Shown here: piece after piece, positions 5,516 through 63,470 of the stretch
Layout: each line of letters begins with the position of its first letter
Numbering within the stretch: the first letter of the stretch is position 1
NCBI GenBank assembly: GCA_944329425.1
Contig: CALVIG010000002.1
Coordinates: forward strand, 593 to 64,592
Direction: 5' to 3'
DNA from: an uncultured Bacilli bacterium
GTDB lineage: Bacteria; Bacillota_I; Bacilli_A; RF39; UBA660
Length of the DNA: 64,000 bases
Notes under the pieces: generated by a model
Seen by the model: the letters and a program-made list of their open reading frames with translations, nothing else
Told to the model about the DNA's origin: nothing
Databases searched by the model: none
Translations under genes and position numbers: made by a program

Positions 5516-5578
5516 TATTTTATTGATAAATATCTTTTTTTGTCTTATAATTACTTTATAAGAATAGGAAGGTTTTAT

Positions 5579-7592: not shown

Positions 7593-8015
7593 ATGAGAGT
7601 ATATTACTTATTTAAAATTAATGATTCTTTTTCTAAGTTGTATCACAGCAAGACTTATTATTTATATAAGATATTAGAGCAGATTTCTGAATCCAGCAAA
7701 AATGATTTTATAATTTCATACAGGTTGTTTGAACAATTAGCGGTTGCATTTAATAAAGCCGAAGTAAATGGTAACATATATAAGCATTATTCTTCTAGTG
7801 AATATTACCGAAAAACGCTTAATAAGCACGTGTTAGATGATGGGGTGGAAAAAACAAAACTTACCGTTTATAACACTTACGTTAAGATTAGAACTAACAA
7901 AAATATAACGGAATTTTTTAAGATACTAGAAAAAGAAAAAAACGTTTTTGTTTGTGATTTTAATAATAAAGATTATTTTTGGCTTAGTAAAGTAACGTCA
8001 AAAAGTCTTGTATAA
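7593..8015 (+). CDS. sirA: Sporulation inhibitor of replication SirA (YneE) homologue
   Basis: 140 aa. N-terminus [11 protein letters not shown] and C-terminus [14 protein letters not shown] resemble B. subtilis SirA (MERHYYTYLIKEE ... MDFNSKRYGWLNPV). Located right after tkt as in B. subtilis. Confidence 0.6.
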
Positions 8016-19717: not shown

Positions 19718-19738
19718 CAGAAAGGTGTGAAAGTTTTT

Positions 19739-20647
19739 ATGGGACTAAGAAGTAAGTTAAATAAAATGAAAAGTTTTTTATTTGATGAAGAGGAAGATGA
19801 AAAAGAAATTAAAAAAACTCCAAAAATTTCTTTAAAAAAAGACGTAAAAAAAGAAAAAATTAAGGAAGAGCAAGATGATTTTTCTAAGACTCAAGAAATA
19901 GAGGAATTATATTTCGAAGATGTTTCCGAAAATAGTATTGAAAAGACTAAAGAAATAAAGTCTAGAGCTACTAAAATAGAACCAGAATTTAAATTTCCTG
20001 AGTTTAACGATGATGATTTTGCGGTTGTAAGAACTAAACCAGAACCAATTATTAAGCCCGTAAGGGAGGAAGTTAAACCGGTTTTATATCAGGGAAGTAA
20101 AAGAAAAGAAGAAACAAAAAAATTTAAGCCTAGCCCTATAATTTCACCTATATACGGATTATTAGATAAAGATGGTAACACGATACAAAATGATTCTAAA
20201 AGTCATGATGGTAGTAGCCAAAAAGAAGAAGTTTCATTAGATATCGTTAGAAAAAAAGCTTATGGAGCCTTAGACGAAGAACTTGAAAACACGATGAAAC
20301 GTTTAAGTAAAAAAACAATAGAAGAAGCAGAAAAAGATATGGAAGTTGAAGAAAAAGAACTTTCTAGAACTAAACAAAAAGCAAAAAAAGTTGAAGAGAC
20401 AAAACCTGTTGTTATTTCAAAAGAGGATTTGGAAGCGGATGACGATGATGATATGATATTACCAAATATCAATTTTAAGGAAATAGACGTTGATAAGGAA
20501 AGATTAAAAAATAATTCTGGTAAAAAAAGTGTAAAAGAAAACATAGAAAAACAATTAGATGACGATGACGATGATGACGACACTAAGGAACAAGATTTAT
20601 TTAATTTAATTGATTCAATGTATCAGAAAGAAGGTAAGGAAGATTAA
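19739..20647 (+). CDS. Hyper-acidic Lys/Glu/Asp-rich protein with SepF-like N-terminal amphipathic helix (about 302 aa)
   Basis: Track ORF 19727-20647. ATG at codon 5. N-terminus MGLRSKLNKMKSFLFDEEEDE resembles the SepF membrane-binding helix, but no SepF core domain is present. Contains poly-Asp runs. Confidence 0.4.
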   Translation: MGLRSKLNKMKSFLFDEEEDEKEIKKTPKISLKKDVKKEKIKEEQDDFSKTQEIEELYFEDVSENSIEKTKEIKSRATKIEPEFKFPEFNDDDFAVVRTKPEPIIKPVREEVKPVLYQGSKRKEETKKFKPSPIISPIYGLLDKDGNTIQNDSKSHDGSSQKEEVSLDIVRKKAYGALDEELENTMKRLSKKTIEEAEKDMEVEEKELSRTKQKAKKVEETKPVVISKEDLEADDDDDMILPNINFKEIDVDKERLKNNSGKKSVKENIEKQLDDDDDDDDTKEQDLFNLIDSMYQKEGKED

Positions 20648-22259: not shown

Positions 22260-22778
22260 ATGTATAAGGAGATAGTTACTAAAGCTGTTATAGGAAAGGG
22301 TAAAAAATATTTTAAAAACACCTATAATCTTTTAACGGAAAACAACGCTAATACAATTTTGGGCTGCTGGGTAATTAATCACGAATTTAAAGGCACGGTA
22401 AATGGTGATAAGGTTGTTATAGATGGTAATTTTGACGTTAATATATGGTATTCATATGATGATGATAAAAAAACTACCGTAGCTAACAAAAACATATCTT
22501 ATAGTGAAGTTGTTAGCGTAAAAACCAAAACTGGAACTTCTTTGGCTGGAAGTGATATAATCGTAAGAGCGTTAAAGCAACCAAGTTGTAGTAATGTTAC
22601 AGCAAAGGATGATGTAATAGAGTTTGATATAGAAAAAGAGTTAGGAATAGAAGTAGTAAATGATGAAAAAGTAAAAATTGCGATAGAAGAAGATGAGGAA
22701 CCATGGGACACAATCGATGATGATACACAAGAAGTAGAAAAAGCAATTGATGAAGAAGTTAAAGAGGATTTTATTTAG
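22260..22778 (+). CDS. cotE: Outer spore coat morphogenetic protein CotE
   Basis: YKEIVTKAVIGKGKKY..ILGCWVINH..NIWYSY...LKQPSC...acidic C-terminal tail. Collinear with B. subtilis CotE (YREIITKAVVAKGRK..ILGGWIINH..VWYSY..LQQPNC..acidic tail). Confidence 0.75.
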   Translation: MYKEIVTKAVIGKGKKYFKNTYNLLTENNANTILGCWVINHEFKGTVNGDKVVIDGNFDVNIWYSYDDDKKTTVANKNISYSEVVSVKTKTGTSLAGSDIIVRALKQPSCSNVTAKDDVIEFDIEKELGIEVVNDEKVKIAIEEDEEPWDTIDDDTQEVEKAIDEEVKEDFI

Positions 22779-25493: not shown

Positions 25494-26429
25494 ATGAAAG
25501 ATTTAAAAGTAATATTTATGGGAACACCTGATTTTTGTGTACCCATTCTTAAAGCGTTAAGCGAAAAATGTAACGTTATAGCGGTTGTAACGCAGCCTGA
25601 TAAAGAAGTTGGAAGAAAAAAAGAAATAAGTTATTCTCCCATAAAAAAAACTGCTATTGGCTTGGGTATTAAAGTTTTACAACCTGTTAAAATAAAGGAA
25701 GAATATAAGGAAATAATTGATCTTAATCCTGATATTATAATTACTTGTGCATATGGTCAAATAGTTCCTGAAGTGATTTTAAATTACCCTAAATATGGCT
25801 GTATTAACGTTCATGCTTCTTTACTTCCTAAATTACGTGGTGGGGCTCCTATTCATAAGGCTATTATATATGGTTATGATGTTACTGGAATAACCATTAT
25901 GTACATGGATAAAGGTATGGATACAGGCGACATGATTTCAAAAAAAGAAGTTAAAATAGAAGATAATGATACGGCAGAAACTCTTCATGATAAGCTTCAA
26001 AAAATTTCGGTTACGTTACTTCTTGAAACTTTACCTAAAATAATAAGTGGTACTAATAAAAGAGAAAAGCAAGATGATAATTGTGCAACTTATGCATATA
26101 ACATCTCAAGGCAAGAAGAACACGTGGATTTTAATAAGACGTCCAAAGAAGTGTTTAACCAAATAAGGGGACTTAATTCATGGCCTGGAGCTTACGCTGT
26201 ATTGGATGATAAAAACATCAAATTATGGTTATCAAAAATAAGTGAGAATCATTATGATGCTAAGCCTGGAACGATAGTAAATTTAGATAAAAATGGGATG
26301 GAAATTGTAACAAAAGATGGTAGTGTTTTAATAACTGAATTACAACTTCCTGGTAAGCGAAAAACAAACATTAAGGATTTTATAAATGGTGTAAAAAAAG
26401 AAGATTACTTAGACAAACGATTTAGGTAA
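25494..26429 (+). CDS. fmt: Methionyl-tRNA formyltransferase
   Basis: MKDLKVIFMGTPDF... start with AAGAGGAA SD (track 25473). Formyltransferase N-domain plus C-terminal domain. Confidence 0.85.
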   Translation: MKDLKVIFMGTPDFCVPILKALSEKCNVIAVVTQPDKEVGRKKEISYSPIKKTAIGLGIKVLQPVKIKEEYKEIIDLNPDIIITCAYGQIVPEVILNYPKYGCINVHASLLPKLRGGAPIHKAIIYGYDVTGITIMYMDKGMDTGDMISKKEVKIEDNDTAETLHDKLQKISVTLLLETLPKIISGTNKREKQDDNCATYAYNISRQEEHVDFNKTSKEVFNQIRGLNSWPGAYAVLDDKNIKLWLSKISENHYDAKPGTIVNLDKNGMEIVTKDGSVLITELQLPGKRKTNIKDFINGVKKEDYLDKRFR

Positions 26430-26525
26430 TCTTTTTTATTTTGTAAATAATTGTAAATAAATAAAAAAAATATGAGTAGCCAATAATTTATGTGTTAAAA
26501 TACATAAATAGGAGGAAGTAAAAAG

Positions 26526-27158
26526 ATGAAAAAGAAAAACATGATAATAATAGGAGTAATAGCTCTAATACTTGTAGTAGCGGTAGGATATGCGTTATTT
26601 TCAGACACGTTAACTATAAATGGAACAGCAACCGCTAAAGGTGATTTTAATTTAAGTTATGCATGTGAGTTTGTTGATGAAGATATTAGTTGGGGAGAAG
26701 GTCAAAAAACATCAGCATCAACTGGAACGGGTTCATGCCAAGTTGAAGGTAATGAAATAACAACAACTAGTAAACTATCTAAGCCAACTGATTTTTCAAT
26801 TTTCAAGGTAACGGTAACAAATAACGGATCAATACCAGCAGTATTAAAGACGGTTGATTCATCAAATAATGTAGCTTCAAATATGACTGATGTAGGTGAC
26901 GTATTTTATTTAGATAAAACAACTGCATTATTTGGATATTACGAAGTTCGTAAAAATAATGAATTAATTTCCGCTAACGGTGATGGAGCATTAGAAGAAG
27001 CAACTATAACTTTACAAACTGGAGAATCTGTAGATTTTTATATCTATAACATGTGGATGGATTCAGATATGTTAGGTTTAGCATCACAACCTGAGTTATC
27101 AAATGGGCAAGCAACAATGCAGTATAATATGATCCTTGGTTTTCAGCAAGCATCATAA
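26526..27158 (+). CDS. TasA/CalY (camelysin, peptidase M73)-family secreted protein with SipW-cognate-type signal peptide
   Basis: The N-terminus MKKKNMIIIGVIALILVVAVGYALFSDTLTINGTATAKGDF matches the SipW-cognate signal class (..GGTxAxFSD..). FKVTVTNNGSIPAVLKTV resembles TasA FQFENNGSLAIKEVL. No sipW gene lies within the window. Confidence 0.6.
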   Translation: MKKKNMIIIGVIALILVVAVGYALFSDTLTINGTATAKGDFNLSYACEFVDEDISWGEGQKTSASTGTGSCQVEGNEITTTSKLSKPTDFSIFKVTVTNNGSIPAVLKTVDSSNNVASNMTDVGDVFYLDKTTALFGYYEVRKNNELISANGDGALEEATITLQTGESVDFYIYNMWMDSDMLGLASQPELSNGQATMQYNMILGFQQAS

Positions 27159-27264
27159 TTGATAAAGAATTAGAACTTCAGGTTCTAATTTTTTTAATAT
27201 ATAAAGTCAAATGCTTAACCTTTATTAGTTATTTTGGTATAATTATAAACATAAGGAGTTTATT

Positions 27265-28296
27265 ATGAACAGTATTTATAATTATACTTTAAATGATTTA
27301 CAAGCGTATTTTGAAGAAATAGGTGAGTCTAAATATAGGGCGAGTCAAGTTTTTGACTGGCTTTACGTTAAAAGGGTTAAATCTTTTGATGATATGACTA
27401 ATTTGAAGAAACCTTTGATTAAATATTTAAAAAAAAATTTCTCTTTTGATACCTTAAAATTAATAAAGGTTCAAAAAGACGTGGATGTAAAAAAATACTT
27501 ATTTGAATTATATGATGGAAATAAGATTGAAGCGGTGTTAATGAACCATGATTATGGTAATAGTTTGTGTGTGTCATCTCAAGTTGGATGTAACATGGGG
27601 TGTAGGTTTTGTGAAAGCGGAAGGCTAAAAAAAGTAAGAAATCTTTTTGCTTTTGAGTTGGTTCTTCAGGTTTTAAAAGTTGAAGAAGAAACTAATGAAA
27701 GAATAAGTCACATAGTATTAATGGGAATAGGAGAACCTTTTGATAATTATGATAACGTTATGAAATTTATTAATATAATTAATGACCCTAAGGGAATAAA
27801 TATTGGAATAAGGCACATTACCATATCTACTTGTGGCATTGTTCCAAAAATAAAACAATTTATGGAAGAAAAAACCGGTGTTAATTTGGCGATAAGTTTA
27901 CATGCTCCTAACGATATAATTAGAAATGAAATAATGCCCATAAATAAGGCATATAACATTGAGAATGTTATATCAACGGTTAAAGAATACATAGATAAAA
28001 CAAATAGAAGGGTAACTTTTGAATACATTTTATTAGATGGTGTTAATGATAGTGAAAAATGTGCACTTGAGCTATCCAGATTGCTAAAGGGAATAAACTG
28101 TTACGTTAATTTGATTCCGTATAATGAAACTAGTCATATTGAATATAAAAGTAGTAAAAAAGTGACAATTAATAAATTTTATGATATATTAAAAAGGAAT
28201 AATATAAATGTTACAATAAGACGCGAGTTTGGTTCTAAAGTATCAGCGGCATGTGGCCAGCTTAGAAGTGAACAAGCAACCGAAAGTGAGCGATAA
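27265..28296 (+). CDS. rlmN: 23S rRNA/tRNA (adenine2503-C2)-methyltransferase RlmN (radical SAM)
   Basis: CxxxCxxC (CNMGCRFC) radical-SAM motif. Typical RlmN N-terminus. Canonical position before prpC-prkC. Confidence 0.85.
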   Translation: MNSIYNYTLNDLQAYFEEIGESKYRASQVFDWLYVKRVKSFDDMTNLKKPLIKYLKKNFSFDTLKLIKVQKDVDVKKYLFELYDGNKIEAVLMNHDYGNSLCVSSQVGCNMGCRFCESGRLKKVRNLFAFELVLQVLKVEEETNERISHIVLMGIGEPFDNYDNVMKFINIINDPKGINIGIRHITISTCGIVPKIKQFMEEKTGVNLAISLHAPNDIIRNEIMPINKAYNIENVISTVKEYIDKTNRRVTFEYILLDGVNDSEKCALELSRLLKGINCYVNLIPYNETSHIEYKSSKKVTINKFYDILKRNNINVTIRREFGSKVSAACGQLRSEQATESER

Positions 28297-28297
28297 T

Positions 28298-29041
28298 ATG
28301 AAGGCGTATTACATAACTGATACTGGAAAAGTTAGAACTCATAATGAGGATTCAGTAATGATTGTTCAAAACTTATCTGGAGAATATTTAATGGTAGTTG
28401 CGGATGGTATGGGTGGTCATAAAGCAGGTGAAGTAGCTTCTTCAATCGTGGTTAACGGACTTACTGAAAAGTTTAAGAAACTAGAGACCATCGGCGAAAA
28501 ACAAGATGCGGTTAATTGGATTAGGAAAAATGCTAATGAATTAAATGAAGCCATATTTAAATACACAGATGAATTTGAAGAAAGCAAAGGTATGGGAACA
28601 ACCCTTGTTTTAGCTATCGTAACTAATAATTATATACTTTTTGGAAACGTTGGCGATTCTTCCGGTTTTGTAATGAAAAAGGGAGTTTTATATAAAGTTA
28701 CAAAAGATCATACTTTAGTTAATTTATTAGTTGAAACTGGTGAACTTACTCCAGAGGAAGCTGAAAATCATCCTAGAAAAAACGTATTAATGAGAGCACT
28801 TGGAGCTAACAACCCAATAGATGTTGATATTTTTGACGTTGATATGGGAAGTGATGCAATACTTTTGTGTAGTGATGGGCTAACTAACATGCTTACAAAC
28901 GCTCAAATAGAAAAGGTTTTAAATAGTGATTTGAGCTTGGAAGAAAGAATAGTTAAATTGATAAGAAAGAGTAATTTAAGGGGTGGTACAGATAATGTTT
29001 CCATTGCTTATTTAGAAAAAGAAAGTGGTGAAGACAAGTGA
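28298..29041 (+). CDS. prpC: PP2C-family Ser/Thr phosphatase (PrpC/Stp)
   Basis: MKAYYITDTGKVRTHNED...VADGMGGH...CSDGL motifs. Start immediately after the rlmN stop (track ORF 28229 is an upstream extension). Confidence 0.8.
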   Translation: MKAYYITDTGKVRTHNEDSVMIVQNLSGEYLMVVADGMGGHKAGEVASSIVVNGLTEKFKKLETIGEKQDAVNWIRKNANELNEAIFKYTDEFEESKGMGTTLVLAIVTNNYILFGNVGDSSGFVMKKGVLYKVTKDHTLVNLLVETGELTPEEAENHPRKNVLMRALGANNPIDVDIFDVDMGSDAILLCSDGLTNMLTNAQIEKVLNSDLSLEERIVKLIRKSNLRGGTDNVSIAYLEKESGEDK

Positions 29042-44755: not shown

Positions 44756-45685
44756 ATGAAAAACATACTTGGTTATTATTATGGTCTTCATCCGGAAGAA
44801 ATATCTTATAAAGATAATAAATATTTTTTTGAGTACCGTGATCGTAAGTATGTTTTTGAACCATTTGAAAGACCTTTAGGAGATATTGAATGTTTATATA
44901 AGATAAATAAACAAATGATAGAAAGAAATATCTTAGTGCATGAAATAATTCCTAATAATGAAAATAACGTAATAACCTACGTTAACAACGTTGGTTATAT
45001 ATTAATGGAAATATACATAAATAAAGATGCTAGAATAAATTTACCTGAAGTGTGTTATATTAATAATAATTCTATAGGAGTGGAATGTAATAAGACTTTA
45101 AATAGATATGATTGGGTAAATCTGTGGGAAATAAAAAATGATTTTTTGGAAGCTCAAATAAACGAGATAGGAAAGAAGTATCCTAACTTGTGTAATTATG
45201 CTAATTATTATATAGGTTTATCTGAAAATGCTATTTTATATGTAAAAGAAGCTAGTAAATTAGATGATGTTGCACTTGTTAGTATTTGTCATAAAAGGAT
45301 TGATTCAAAAGATAACCTATTCGAATTATATAATCCACTTAGGTATATATATGATTATAGGGTTAGGGATATAAGTGAATACATAAAATCAGCGTTTTTT
45401 AATGATGAAGATGTATATGGTATCGTTAAAGAATATTTTCTAAATAATTATATAAGCTATAAAGAAGCTTTATTATTTTATGGAAGATTGTTATATCCAT
45501 CATATTTTTTTGACTTATATGATAACATAGTTAAAAACGAATTAAATGAAAATTTAATTGATGGTTTAGTTTCAAAATCAGAAGCCTATGAAAAATTTTT
45601 AACTAACATTCATTTATACTTAAGTAAATTGTATAATAGGTATATACCTTCTATAGATTGGTTAATAAAAAGAAGCTACATTTAA
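44756..45685 (+). CDS. CotS/YutH-family spore coat protein (kinase-like fold)
   Basis: 309 aa. Convergent and adjacent to a NifU-like gene, as yutH-yutI are in B. subtilis. Low-level CotS-family resemblance. Confidence 0.5.
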   Translation: MKNILGYYYGLHPEEISYKDNKYFFEYRDRKYVFEPFERPLGDIECLYKINKQMIERNILVHEIIPNNENNVITYVNNVGYILMEIYINKDARINLPEVCYINNNSIGVECNKTLNRYDWVNLWEIKNDFLEAQINEIGKKYPNLCNYANYYIGLSENAILYVKEASKLDDVALVSICHKRIDSKDNLFELYNPLRYIYDYRVRDISEYIKSAFFNDEDVYGIVKEYFLNNYISYKEALLFYGRLLYPSYFFDLYDNIVKNELNENLIDGLVSKSEAYEKFLTNIHLYLSKLYNRYIPSIDWLIKRSYI

Positions 45686-54981: not shown

Positions 54982-55596
54982 TTAAAAAATTCGGTTTATA
55001 GAAACGCATGCGGAATATAAGTCATTTGGTACGAAATCAAAGTCAACATCAGAAGTGTTAATTAGTCTATAGCTTGCGCCAGGAAGGGCTTCAAAGATTG
55101 CGTTACCGCTAATTGTACCAGTATCACAACAAGTTAGTTTATTATGAGTAGATGAATGAGCAATTAACACATCTTCAGGTGAAACTTGGTGAAGTTCTAT
55201 TCCAAGAGCTATAGGCTCACAATCGTTTTCAACTATTTTTTTACTTCTTACGTTGATCCACCAATGCATTGTATATATACCGTTTTCCGGGATAAAGAAA
55301 TCACCAGTGGCTGGATTATATGATATTTTATTTGAAATGTTGGTGTTTTGAAATAATAATGGTGTTTGTTTTGGTACCGTTGTATTAGTTTCGTCATGAA
55401 CCATTGCATAACTATCTAAAGCGGCTCCAGGTCCTTGAGGTCCGGTAGCTCCAGTTGCTCCTTTTGGCCCCGTTGGCCCAGTAGGACCAGTATGGCCAGT
55501 GCAGTCGTTTATTAAACATTTAATTACTGCACATAGACAATCATCATTGCATGTGTTTTCGGCAACTTAATTTAATTTTTCTTGGATGTTGTTCAT
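54982..55596 (-). pseudogene. BclA/C1q-like collagen-repeat (exosporium-type) protein gene interrupted by an in-frame TAA after codon 9
   Basis: Minus-strand ATG at about 55596 with AAAGGAAAAAA SD gives MNNIQEKLN, then TAA (55567-55569). The same frame continues VAENTCNDDCLCAVIKCLINDCTGH-TGPTGPTGPKGATGATGPQGPG (GXX collagen triplets). It then runs into the 140-aa C1q/BclA-C-like domain, which the track lists from an internal Met (54982-55404). Confidence 0.5.
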
Positions 55597-63089: not shown

Positions 63090-63176
63090 TGCCATTGTTT
63101 TTTTATTTGAATATTATATTAGTAAAGATGCATCTTTTAAATATGGGGGAGATTTGGCTTGAGTGATATCTTTAGT

Positions 63177-63470
63177 ATGGTTTCTGATAATATTATTCAA
63201 ATTTTAACTGCAACAATTACTGGTATAGTTGGGTATTTGGGAATAAAAATCAAGAAGATAATTGAAGATTATCTTCAAACAAAATTAAAAAAGGAAATAA
63301 TAGAAAGAACGGTTGTTTATGTAGAACAAATTGGAGAAGAGCTTACTTGTGATGAAAAAAAGAAAAAAGCAACCGAAAAAGCATTGGAATGGATGAAGGA
63401 GAAAAAGATAAACATAAGTGATACCGAACTTGAGATTTTGGTAGAAAGTGCGGTTAAGTGTTTTAAGTAA
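63177..63470 (+). CDS. LL-H-type (holin superfamily 6)-like small membrane protein
   Basis: 98 aa from the first ATG (track ORF begins at TTG 63159). N-terminal TM IIQILTATITGIVGYLGIKI. Charged helical tail VVYVEQIGEE..KKKATEKALEWMKEKKINISDTELEILVESAVKCF resembles Phage_holin_6_1 (VxYAEQ..G..KK..A....L...GI......I...IEAAVK). Hairpin terminator after the stop. Confidence 0.45.
   Translation: MVSDNIIQILTATITGIVGYLGIKIKKIIEDYLQTKLKKEIIERTVVYVEQIGEELTCDEKKKKATEKALEWMKEKKINISDTELEILVESAVKCFK

Follow-up and report, generated by a model that had tools for sequence, protein, structure and literature searches.

Fibres of the TasA superfamily form a recently recognised, cross-domain class of donor-strand biofilm filaments, and their bacterial diversity beyond Bacillus has barely been charted. 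In TasA itself, a phenylalanine at P2' is the reason that processing requires SipW and not a LepB-type enzyme (PMC10269814). The AbpX-like fibre locus, for which Bacillota homologs are included and Clostridium amylolyticum supplies a bacterial example, encodes a signal peptidase I (SPase I) of about 10 transmembrane segments, a DUF5305 "SPase accessory" and minor subunits; AbpX-like proteins have an isoelectric point (pI) of about 4, some 15% Asp plus Glu and two proximal cysteines, and the donor strand of the AbpX family combines an aromatic amino acid in position 2 and an acidic one at position 4 with alternating hydrophobics (W2, L6, L8, A10, I12) (bioRxiv 10.64898/2026.01.04.697558). In the haloarchaeal tafi system pilin processing is carried out by the peptidase TafD, and TafG belongs to DUF5305 (PMC11821415); assembly by donor-strand exchange has been proposed both for archaeal tafi and for DUF1102-type clusters (PMC11821415, PMC12337348). 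The subject of this report is a small gene lying between fmt and rlmN in a 64,000-nucleotide stretch of DNA (the window; 29.3% G+C) from an uncultured Bacilli bacterium (assembly GCA_944329425.1, contig CALVIG010000002.1, positions 593 to 64,592). It is probably a solo gene, transcribed independently, for a subunit of an extracellular fibre of the TasA superfamily; the subunit would be cleaved by an SPase I and incorporated by donor-strand complementation, and its body is diversifying. New here are a sizeable, un-modelled family, the machinery that likely processes its members (a Ser/His SPase I of polytopic type and a DUF5305 protein), and two behaviours not reported before: solo subunit genes are massively dispersed in a reduced genome, and recombinational hypervariability is sharply localised in the alleles of one species.

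The protein belongs to a family, within the TasA superfamily, for which neither Pfam nor NCBIfam has a model. A word-index search of a 5.8-billion-protein set yielded 264 homologs, none with a Pfam domain, and an exhaustive representative library (50% identity) contained 898 representatives matched at E<=1e-3. Full-length members are about 200 amino acids long and have a signal peptide ending in AVGYA, the strictly conserved LFS[DE]TxTINGTATAKGDF, two invariant cysteines, the pair KPTD...TNxGSIPAVLKTV, and a C-terminal NYNxTLGFEQ; many further paralogs are alike over the first ~110 residues only and have unrelated C-terminal parts. Among GTDB species representatives a single-sequence scan was empty, and an alignment-based scan returned 75 loci. 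These come from uncultured gut Bacilli, variously labelled Bacilli, "Mollicutes", "Clostridium sp. CAG:594" or Candidatus Aphodocola, one of them on a circular 1.2-Mb genome. A single metagenome-assembled genome (MAG) of a relative carries at least 14-17 distinct paralogs, a lower bound derived from the fetched loci (designated L001 and so on below), and most copies are solo genes amid unrelated housekeeping genes, as in tyrS-X-rnj and fic-X-ppdK.

Conservation in the family is concentrated at the processing site and in the segment that follows it. Cleavage of a SipW type is predicted after Ala23 (GYA↓LFSD), where the -1 residue is small, P2' is Phe and P3'-P4' are polar and acidic, much as in TasA (TWA↓AFND). 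Across 128 superfamily members G21, Y22, A23 and F25 are conserved at 98-99%, and the range is 91-99% when S26 is taken with them. In the same set conservation peaks at residues 21-41 (mean top-residue fraction 0.80-0.85) and drops to at most 0.2 over residues 111-160 and 181-200. The mature protein would begin L-F-S-D-T-L-T-I-N-G-T-A-T-A, and conserved residues then alternate (I31, G33, A35, A37, G39, F41). Mature position 2 is Phe in 50 of 51 members, and position 4 is Asp or Glu in most of them (about 47 of 51). The mature protein is acidic (pI 4.05, 12.8% Asp plus Glu), in line with the family medians of 4.06 and 13.6%. In the AlphaFold2 monomer residues 24-42 form a low-confidence coil (predicted local distance difference test score, pLDDT, of 58-63) between the signal-peptide helix and a confident beta body. 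The lack of structure in this segment, the most conserved one, in the monomer model is the behaviour expected of a strand that completes the fold of another subunit.

The body is modelled with confidence as a beta-sandwich. The full-length monomer has a pLDDT of 89.6 and the body-only model reaches 96.1, with a predicted TM-score (pTM) of 0.91; its features include Cys47 and Cys71, both invariant in 51 sequences, a KPTD...TNNGSIPAVLKTV strand and a C-terminal strand ending in NMILGFQQ. Foldseek, searching 350,542 chains, placed the TasA fibre chain 8aur_A first for the full model (E 1.8e-3), and again for the model lacking both the signal peptide and the N-terminal strand (E 5.7e-4, the sole match at E<=1e-3). 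The TM-scores to 8aur_A are low (0.30-0.34), and the AbpX entries 9SJ2 and 9RHP were not among the matches of either model. When family profiles were aligned by hhalign to 36 genuine PF12389 proteins, profile A1 gave 59.7% probability (P 8.8e-5, 88 columns, within the N-terminal half) and profile A2 gave 47.9%; the aligned parts are the cleavage site, the N-terminal strand, KPTD with KPGD, and TNNGS with ENNGS.

Family members are also found in relatives in a second type of locus, an operon comprised of two or three small paralogs, a polytopic membrane protein of about 398 amino acids, another paralog and a DUF5305 protein. At least 23 fetched loci have it, each from a different genome apart from one pair, and it is widely sampled. 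The 398-residue protein of the example listed in Table 1 passes TIGR02228, the model for signal peptidase I of the archaeal, endoplasmic reticulum (ER) and SipW type, with 93.9 bits against a cutoff of 51.85; with 60 of the 190 bits that NF046067 demands, it is not orthologous to the SipW of Bacillus. Its motifs read SNSMAP...HRVV...GDNN, with His instead of Lys in 21 of 21 loci, and crude hydropathy gives it about 8 hydrophobic segments. The accompanying DUF5305 protein scores 62.5 bits with PF17231. Over the first ~115 residues the studied protein shares 41-47% identity with operon subunits A and B, and its signal peptide and N-terminal strand are near-identical to theirs. The usual upstream neighbours of the operon are genes for a polysaccharide deacetylase and a GH25-LysM muramidase.

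By these comparisons the protein lies in the TasA superfamily broadly, outside the TasA/CalY family proper, and by locus architecture comes closest to the AbpX-like branch, with AbpX compared by description. The relatives' operons bring together small paralogs of the subunit, an SPase I of polytopic type and a DUF5305 protein, as the AbpX-like locus does; the solo gene in the window is without such a locus. The studied protein has F2, D4 and alternating conserved residues in its mature N-terminus, the family has a mature pI of about 4, is rich in Asp and Glu and has two conserved cysteines, and the host phylum is Bacillota, where such homologs are reported. There are also differences: the relatives' peptidase has fewer apparent membrane segments than the AbpX-like enzyme; no LPXTG or SLH anchor, histidine kinase or cyclic di-GMP genes lie beside the operon in the loci examined; the studied gene is a solo copy far from any peptidase; and neither the dispersal of so many copies in a small genome nor the intraspecific mosaicism reported below has been described for AbpX.

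With TasA/CalY the protein shares an aromatic residue at -2, Ala at -1, Phe at P2' and an acidic residue at P4', an N-terminal strand and a KPxD...NxGS strand that align, a beta-sandwich body, and presumably the dependence on an ER/archaeal-type Ser/His signal peptidase that has been shown for TasA. It is, however, about 50 residues shorter and lacks similarity over the C-terminal half; its family differs further in the two invariant cysteines, the DUF5305 accessory, the multiple dispersed genes and the lack of tapA, and the relatives' peptidase is a polytopic fusion of ~400 amino acids, whereas SipW has ~190. The tafi clusters resemble the relatives' operon in combining a multi-transmembrane Ser/His(-Arg) signal peptidase, a DUF5305 protein and two or three small subunit paralogs (150-200 amino acids), but they are archaeal and Tat-exported, whereas the studied protein has a Lys-rich, Sec-type n-region with no twin arginine. 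BsaA of Clostridium perfringens (TIGR04090) is likewise a SipW substrate of clostridial, Bacillota origin. Its model gives weak matches in 5 of the 128 superfamily members (best E 0.003), but all are sub-threshold and the studied protein itself is unmatched.

The product would be a secreted, acidic beta-sandwich protein with a putative cysteine bridge. It would probably be exported by Sec through its N-terminal signal peptide and then cut after Ala23 by a dedicated polytopic Ser/His SPase I of SipW/archaeal type, presumably encoded elsewhere in the genome in an operon that would also hold the DUF5305 accessory, which probably assists, and several small paralogs. The exposed, invariant N-terminal strand LFSDTLTINGTATAKGDF would complete the fold of the subunit next to it (donor-strand complementation), and the outcome would be polymerisation into extracellular fibres, or incorporation in them, together with the operon-encoded subunits. 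The many solo paralogs of the gene, transcribed independently, are alike in processing site and putative donor strand and divergent in their bodies.

Several results weigh against a fibre subunit. TIGR04088 matches the studied protein over residues 7-37 with 15.9 bits (E 0.011), below its cutoff of 19 bits, and PF12389 (Peptidase_M73) matches residues 6-45 only, with 10.6 bits (E 0.51) against a gathering threshold of 22.5; none of the 128 superfamily members reaches either cutoff, and a search of PDB sequences with the family profile was empty even at E<=10. The profile alignment to PF12389 is restricted to the N-terminal half, and 60% probability falls short of proof. Likeness to AbpX (WP_338249486.1) is likeness to its published description. 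The 64-kb window contains no S26 signal peptidase and no peptidase operon, and the operon is not tied to the window species: contigs of its most widely sampled subunit (P0112) come from other samples, and in the nearest genome that carries both locus types Fmt is only 80% identical to that of the window. Polymerisation, finally, is inferred throughout.

A reading made earlier from the letters of the window alone (the sequence-only reading) had assigned the gene to the TasA/CalY family on a "diagnostic" SipW-type signal peptide and a TasA/camelysin-like body. The AVGYALFSD motif is there, at its sole occurrence in the window, and the lack of a nearby sipW or tapA noted at the time extends to the whole 64 kb, in which LexA is the only S24/S26-superfamily match. 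A secreted protein with a SipW-type cleavage motif is borne out, but the scores above do not allow the signal peptide to be called diagnostic; for the body there is no significant Peptidase_M73 match, and its likeness to TasA is a remote one, seen by hhalign and Foldseek. Recognition as TasA-like stands at the level of the superfamily and fails, by curated cutoffs, for TasA/CalY and TIGR04088. A camelysin-like metalloprotease function was ruled out, because the protein has neither histidine nor HExxH.

Such sub-threshold matches, together with the low TM-scores to TasA, are what would be seen if the protein were simply secreted, with a generic SPase I signal peptide, and resembled TasA by coincidence. 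This explanation is nevertheless very improbable. Paralogs are co-operonic with a SipW/archaeal-type peptidase and a DUF5305 protein in the loci described above, the Y-A↓x-F-S-[DE] motif is near-invariant, and TasA was the top structural match twice, once with a model that lacked the signal peptide. Furthermore, three independent hidden Markov models of SipW substrates recur across the members. TIGR04088, with 15 of the 128 (all E >= 1.1e-3), is first among the recurring NCBIfam families, and TIGR04090 (5 members) and TIGR04089 (1) are also within the top seven, all of them sub-threshold; PF12389 matches 5 of the 128 (best E 0.017).

The body of the gene is a recombinant mosaic within the species. 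The window and two conspecific contigs (L001 and L088) are 98.4-98.9% identical in DNA over 12-16 kb outside the gene, and alleles were compared between the window region 26688-27083 and L001 8001-8633 and L088 6001-6639. Against L001, identity is 98.85% outside the gene, 93% in the 26550-26700 bin and 73-82% in 26700-27000; against L088, it is 98.4% outside and 70-81% in 26850-27150. Two cassettes account for the variation, each with two allele types that assort independently (Table 1). All four A/B combinations were seen among protein alleles (window, P0002, P0003 and P0004), which demonstrates recombination. Differing codons number 30 synonymous and 26 nonsynonymous for L001 and 27 and 26 for L088; with both kinds abundant, the cassettes are old imported alleles, as opposed to recent point mutations. 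No allele departs from the others in the signal peptide, the N-terminal strand, the central NxGS strand or the C-terminal strand. Mosaics of this kind are typical of exposed surface antigens, and recombinational exchange of surface-forming segments hints that a diverse surface, or diverse antigens, are selected for in the gut.

Hypervariable bodies within a species, and the many paralogs that resemble one another over the N-terminal part alone, could also be expected of a surface or secreted protein that is processed by a SipW-type enzyme and does not polymerise, such as a variable adhesin, a lectin or a decoy antigen, which would share nothing but the export and processing module. This is the main rival to a fibre subunit, and a rather unlikely one. 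Conservation runs 18 residues past the cleavage site, in an alternating pattern, which is beyond the needs of a processing signal alone, and the C-terminal and KPxD...NxGS strands are conserved across the superfamily, as expected if donor and acceptor elements are both maintained.

Since one invariant processing site and one donor strand are kept by all paralogs, any of them could plug into the same fibre. A bolder extension of the fibre interpretation, which we offer tentatively and as the less likely course, is a pilin-variation system on a TasA/SipW scaffold in uncultured gut Bacilli of ~1.2 Mb, in which the scattered subunit genes, with recombining exposed bodies, would yield variable fibres. 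If this were true, the extracellular fibres would be combinatorially or antigenically variable. Fibres, if real, would probably be a major surface structure, exposed to host or phage, of an uncultured lineage that is prevalent in the animal and human gut, and a natural example of subunit variation in a filament that is neither of type IV nor chaperone-dependent.

A third possibility is a role in the spore coat or exosporium, like the CotN role of TasA, in place of a vegetative matrix fibre. The annotation "spore coat-associated protein N" is frequent among TasA homologs, and sporulation genes are at hand: a CotE-like gene (22260-22778) and YutH (44756-45685) lie in the window, and a relative's contig has SirA and Cse60 in the corresponding stretch. 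We consider it quite unlikely, given that the relatives' core operon adjoins the polysaccharide deacetylase and GH25/LysM cell-wall enzyme and not coat genes, and that so many hypervariable paralogs would be less at home in a coat layer than on a surface exposed to host or phage. The sporulation-associated sites of the lineage include 7593-8015 of the window, 15829-16026 of L082 and, as SpoVS, one in L004. With CotE-like, SirA, YutH, Cse60 and SpoVS genes, the lineage is probably a spore-former despite the "Mollicutes" and "Mycoplasma" labels on its MAGs.

The position of the gene is a lesser matter; the weight of the finding lies in the paralog expansion and the localised hypervariability, and the rsmB aspect counts for little. 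The Bacillus-type block runs def-fmt-rsmB-rlmN-prpC-prkC-rsgA-rpe. In the window its part from rlmN through rpe is intact by TIGRFAM and Pfam matches, just as the sequence-only reading had it, with prpC (PP2C phosphatase), prkC (PASTA Ser/Thr kinase), rsgA and rpe following rlmN. It was also right that no rsmB separates fmt from rlmN. With the whole window annotated by Pfam, the gene appears nowhere in the 64 kb; DxCAAPGGK and DAPCS, motifs of the RsmB type, are absent from the window, and 1.12 Mb of DNA (the window and ~1.06 Mb of relatives' fetched loci) contains no m5C-RNA-methyltransferase motif. The peptide deformylase gene def was recognised, through L082 1070-1696, at positions 1-136 of the window on the minus strand, ~25 kb upstream of fmt and opposite to it. 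With def apart from fmt and no rsmB after fmt, the Bacillus-type def-fmt-rsmB order is broken at both ends.

Relatives show what else the slot between fmt and rlmN can hold. The same gene is found in L001 and L088 (Fmt 98-100% identical); the others have a 54-amino acid DUF1540 gene on the opposite strand (L084, 84%), a 232-residue superfamily member of another subtype (L085, 82%), one of ~249 residues and a third subtype (L057, 80%), and an unrelated membrane protein of 171 residues (L086, 79%). None of these six, which are all the relatives with a readable slot, has rsmB there, and so its absence is old and lineage-wide, which fits genome reduction. The slot is a variable intergenic landing site, and the gene's position in it is incidental. 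In two further relatives, L087 (78%) and L026 (76%), the contigs stop at 5548 and 12603, respectively, ~110-230 bp past fmt, which is consistent with repeated or paralogous slot sequence breaking assemblies.

The sequence-only reading had seen in this arrangement an insertion in place of rsmB, unusual for a translation and cell-cycle operon; taken as a recent replacement by a TasA/CalY-family gene, it would imply an unusual functional coupling. The gene does occupy the exact Bacillus-type position of the missing rsmB. Such a replacement is most doubtful, however, as rsmB is missing from the slot of every readable relative, those without a family member in it among them, to as little as 79% Fmt identity, so that a recent replacement is not supported and the arrangement is common in the lineage; nor is the insertion unusual, when the same family sits solo between many other housekeeping genes. 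The gene is, moreover, a self-contained unit, with a ribosome-binding site (RBS) and a terminator of its own and with a separate promoter-like site for rlmN. The RBS, AGGAGG, lies at 26510-26515, with the ATG 10 nucleotides further downstream. The terminator, which the sequence-only reading had pointed out, was missed by a simple terminator scan and detected by direct folding: its 14-bp hairpin (27164-27194) has a dG of -12.8 kcal/mol (z -3.19; 2 of 200 shuffles fold equally well) and was also recovered as inverted repeat I7. A consensus scan listed no plus-strand promoter site in the upstream intergenic region, where the extended -10-like element recognised by eye may be the promoter of the gene.

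A mobile-element, phage or defence origin of the gene was rejected. PHROGs gave an insignificant match only (E 0.049, 14.8 bits), IMG/VR held no relatives, PADLOC returned no match, and neither flanking repeats nor signs of mobile elements were found around the gene, all of which likewise argues against a recent insertion.

Table 1. Features of the fmt-rlmN region of the window, and an example of the peptidase operon of relatives
Feature	Coordinates	Strand	Basis or remarks
fmt (methionyl-tRNA formyltransferase), upstream flank of the slot	25494..26429	+	TIGR00460, 326 bits (cutoff 201.5)
Upstream intergenic region of the studied gene	26430..26525	+	RBS; by-eye extended -10-like TGnTAAAAT (26493-26501)
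Studied gene	26526-27158	+	210-amino acid ORF (open reading frame) between fmt and rlmN
Signal peptide, residues 1-23 (MKKKNMIIIGVIALILVVAVGYA)	26526..26594	+	modelled transmembrane helix over residues 2-25
Predicted mature N-terminus and putative donor strand, residues 24-42 (LFSDTLTINGTATAKGDFN)	26595..26651	+	top conservation of the superfamily
Beta-sandwich body, residues 43-210 and stop	26652..27158	+	AlphaFold2 body-only model; invariant columns
Variable cassette A, ~residues 55-127	26688..26906	+	two allele types within the species
Variable cassette B, ~residues 136-186	26931..27083	+	two allele types, assorting independently of cassette A
Intrinsic terminator of the solo gene	27164..27195	+	AT-rich 14-bp hairpin, 3' arm entering a U-tract
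Promoter-like site for rlmN	27215..27243	+	TTAACC, 17 nucleotides, TATAAT, TG extension; 10/12 consensus positions; consensus match only
rlmN, downstream flank of the slot	27265..28296	+	TIGR00048, 422.6 bits (cutoff 290)
Example operon in a relative	L036, 8001-12887		three paralogs, 398-amino acid protein, paralog, DUF5305 protein; operon also in L038, L039, L047, L052, L056, L058, L059, L063, L075, L089-L096

A few observations concern the flanking genes. The fmt product has the Pfam domains Formyl_trans_N and Formyl_trans_C; gene calls in relatives give it 311 amino acids, and 25473 offers an alternative TTG start. A perfect 13-nucleotide inverted repeat, GTATAATTATAAA at 27237-27249 and TTTATAATTATAC at 27275-27287, flanks the -10-like element, RBS and ATG (27265) of rlmN and could be an operator or an RBS-sequestering hairpin. 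The mechanically called prpC reading frame begins at a TTG and overlaps rlmN by 68 nucleotides (28229-28298); in relatives the gene is called from the ATG at 28298, immediately after the rlmN stop, with 247 amino acids, and this ATG is probably the true start.

Elsewhere in the window, a phage-type holin (Phage_holin_6_1, 48 bits) at 63159-63470, at the 3' end, may mark a prophage or lysis cassette that continues past the window. A minus-strand ORF of 140 amino acids (54982-55404) has a near-threshold match to the C1q domain (22.7 bits against a cutoff of 23.7). An ORF of 306 amino acids at 19727-20647, of low complexity and extreme Lys/Glu/Asp content, is assigned to no family and is conserved in relatives (L001 1214-2122).

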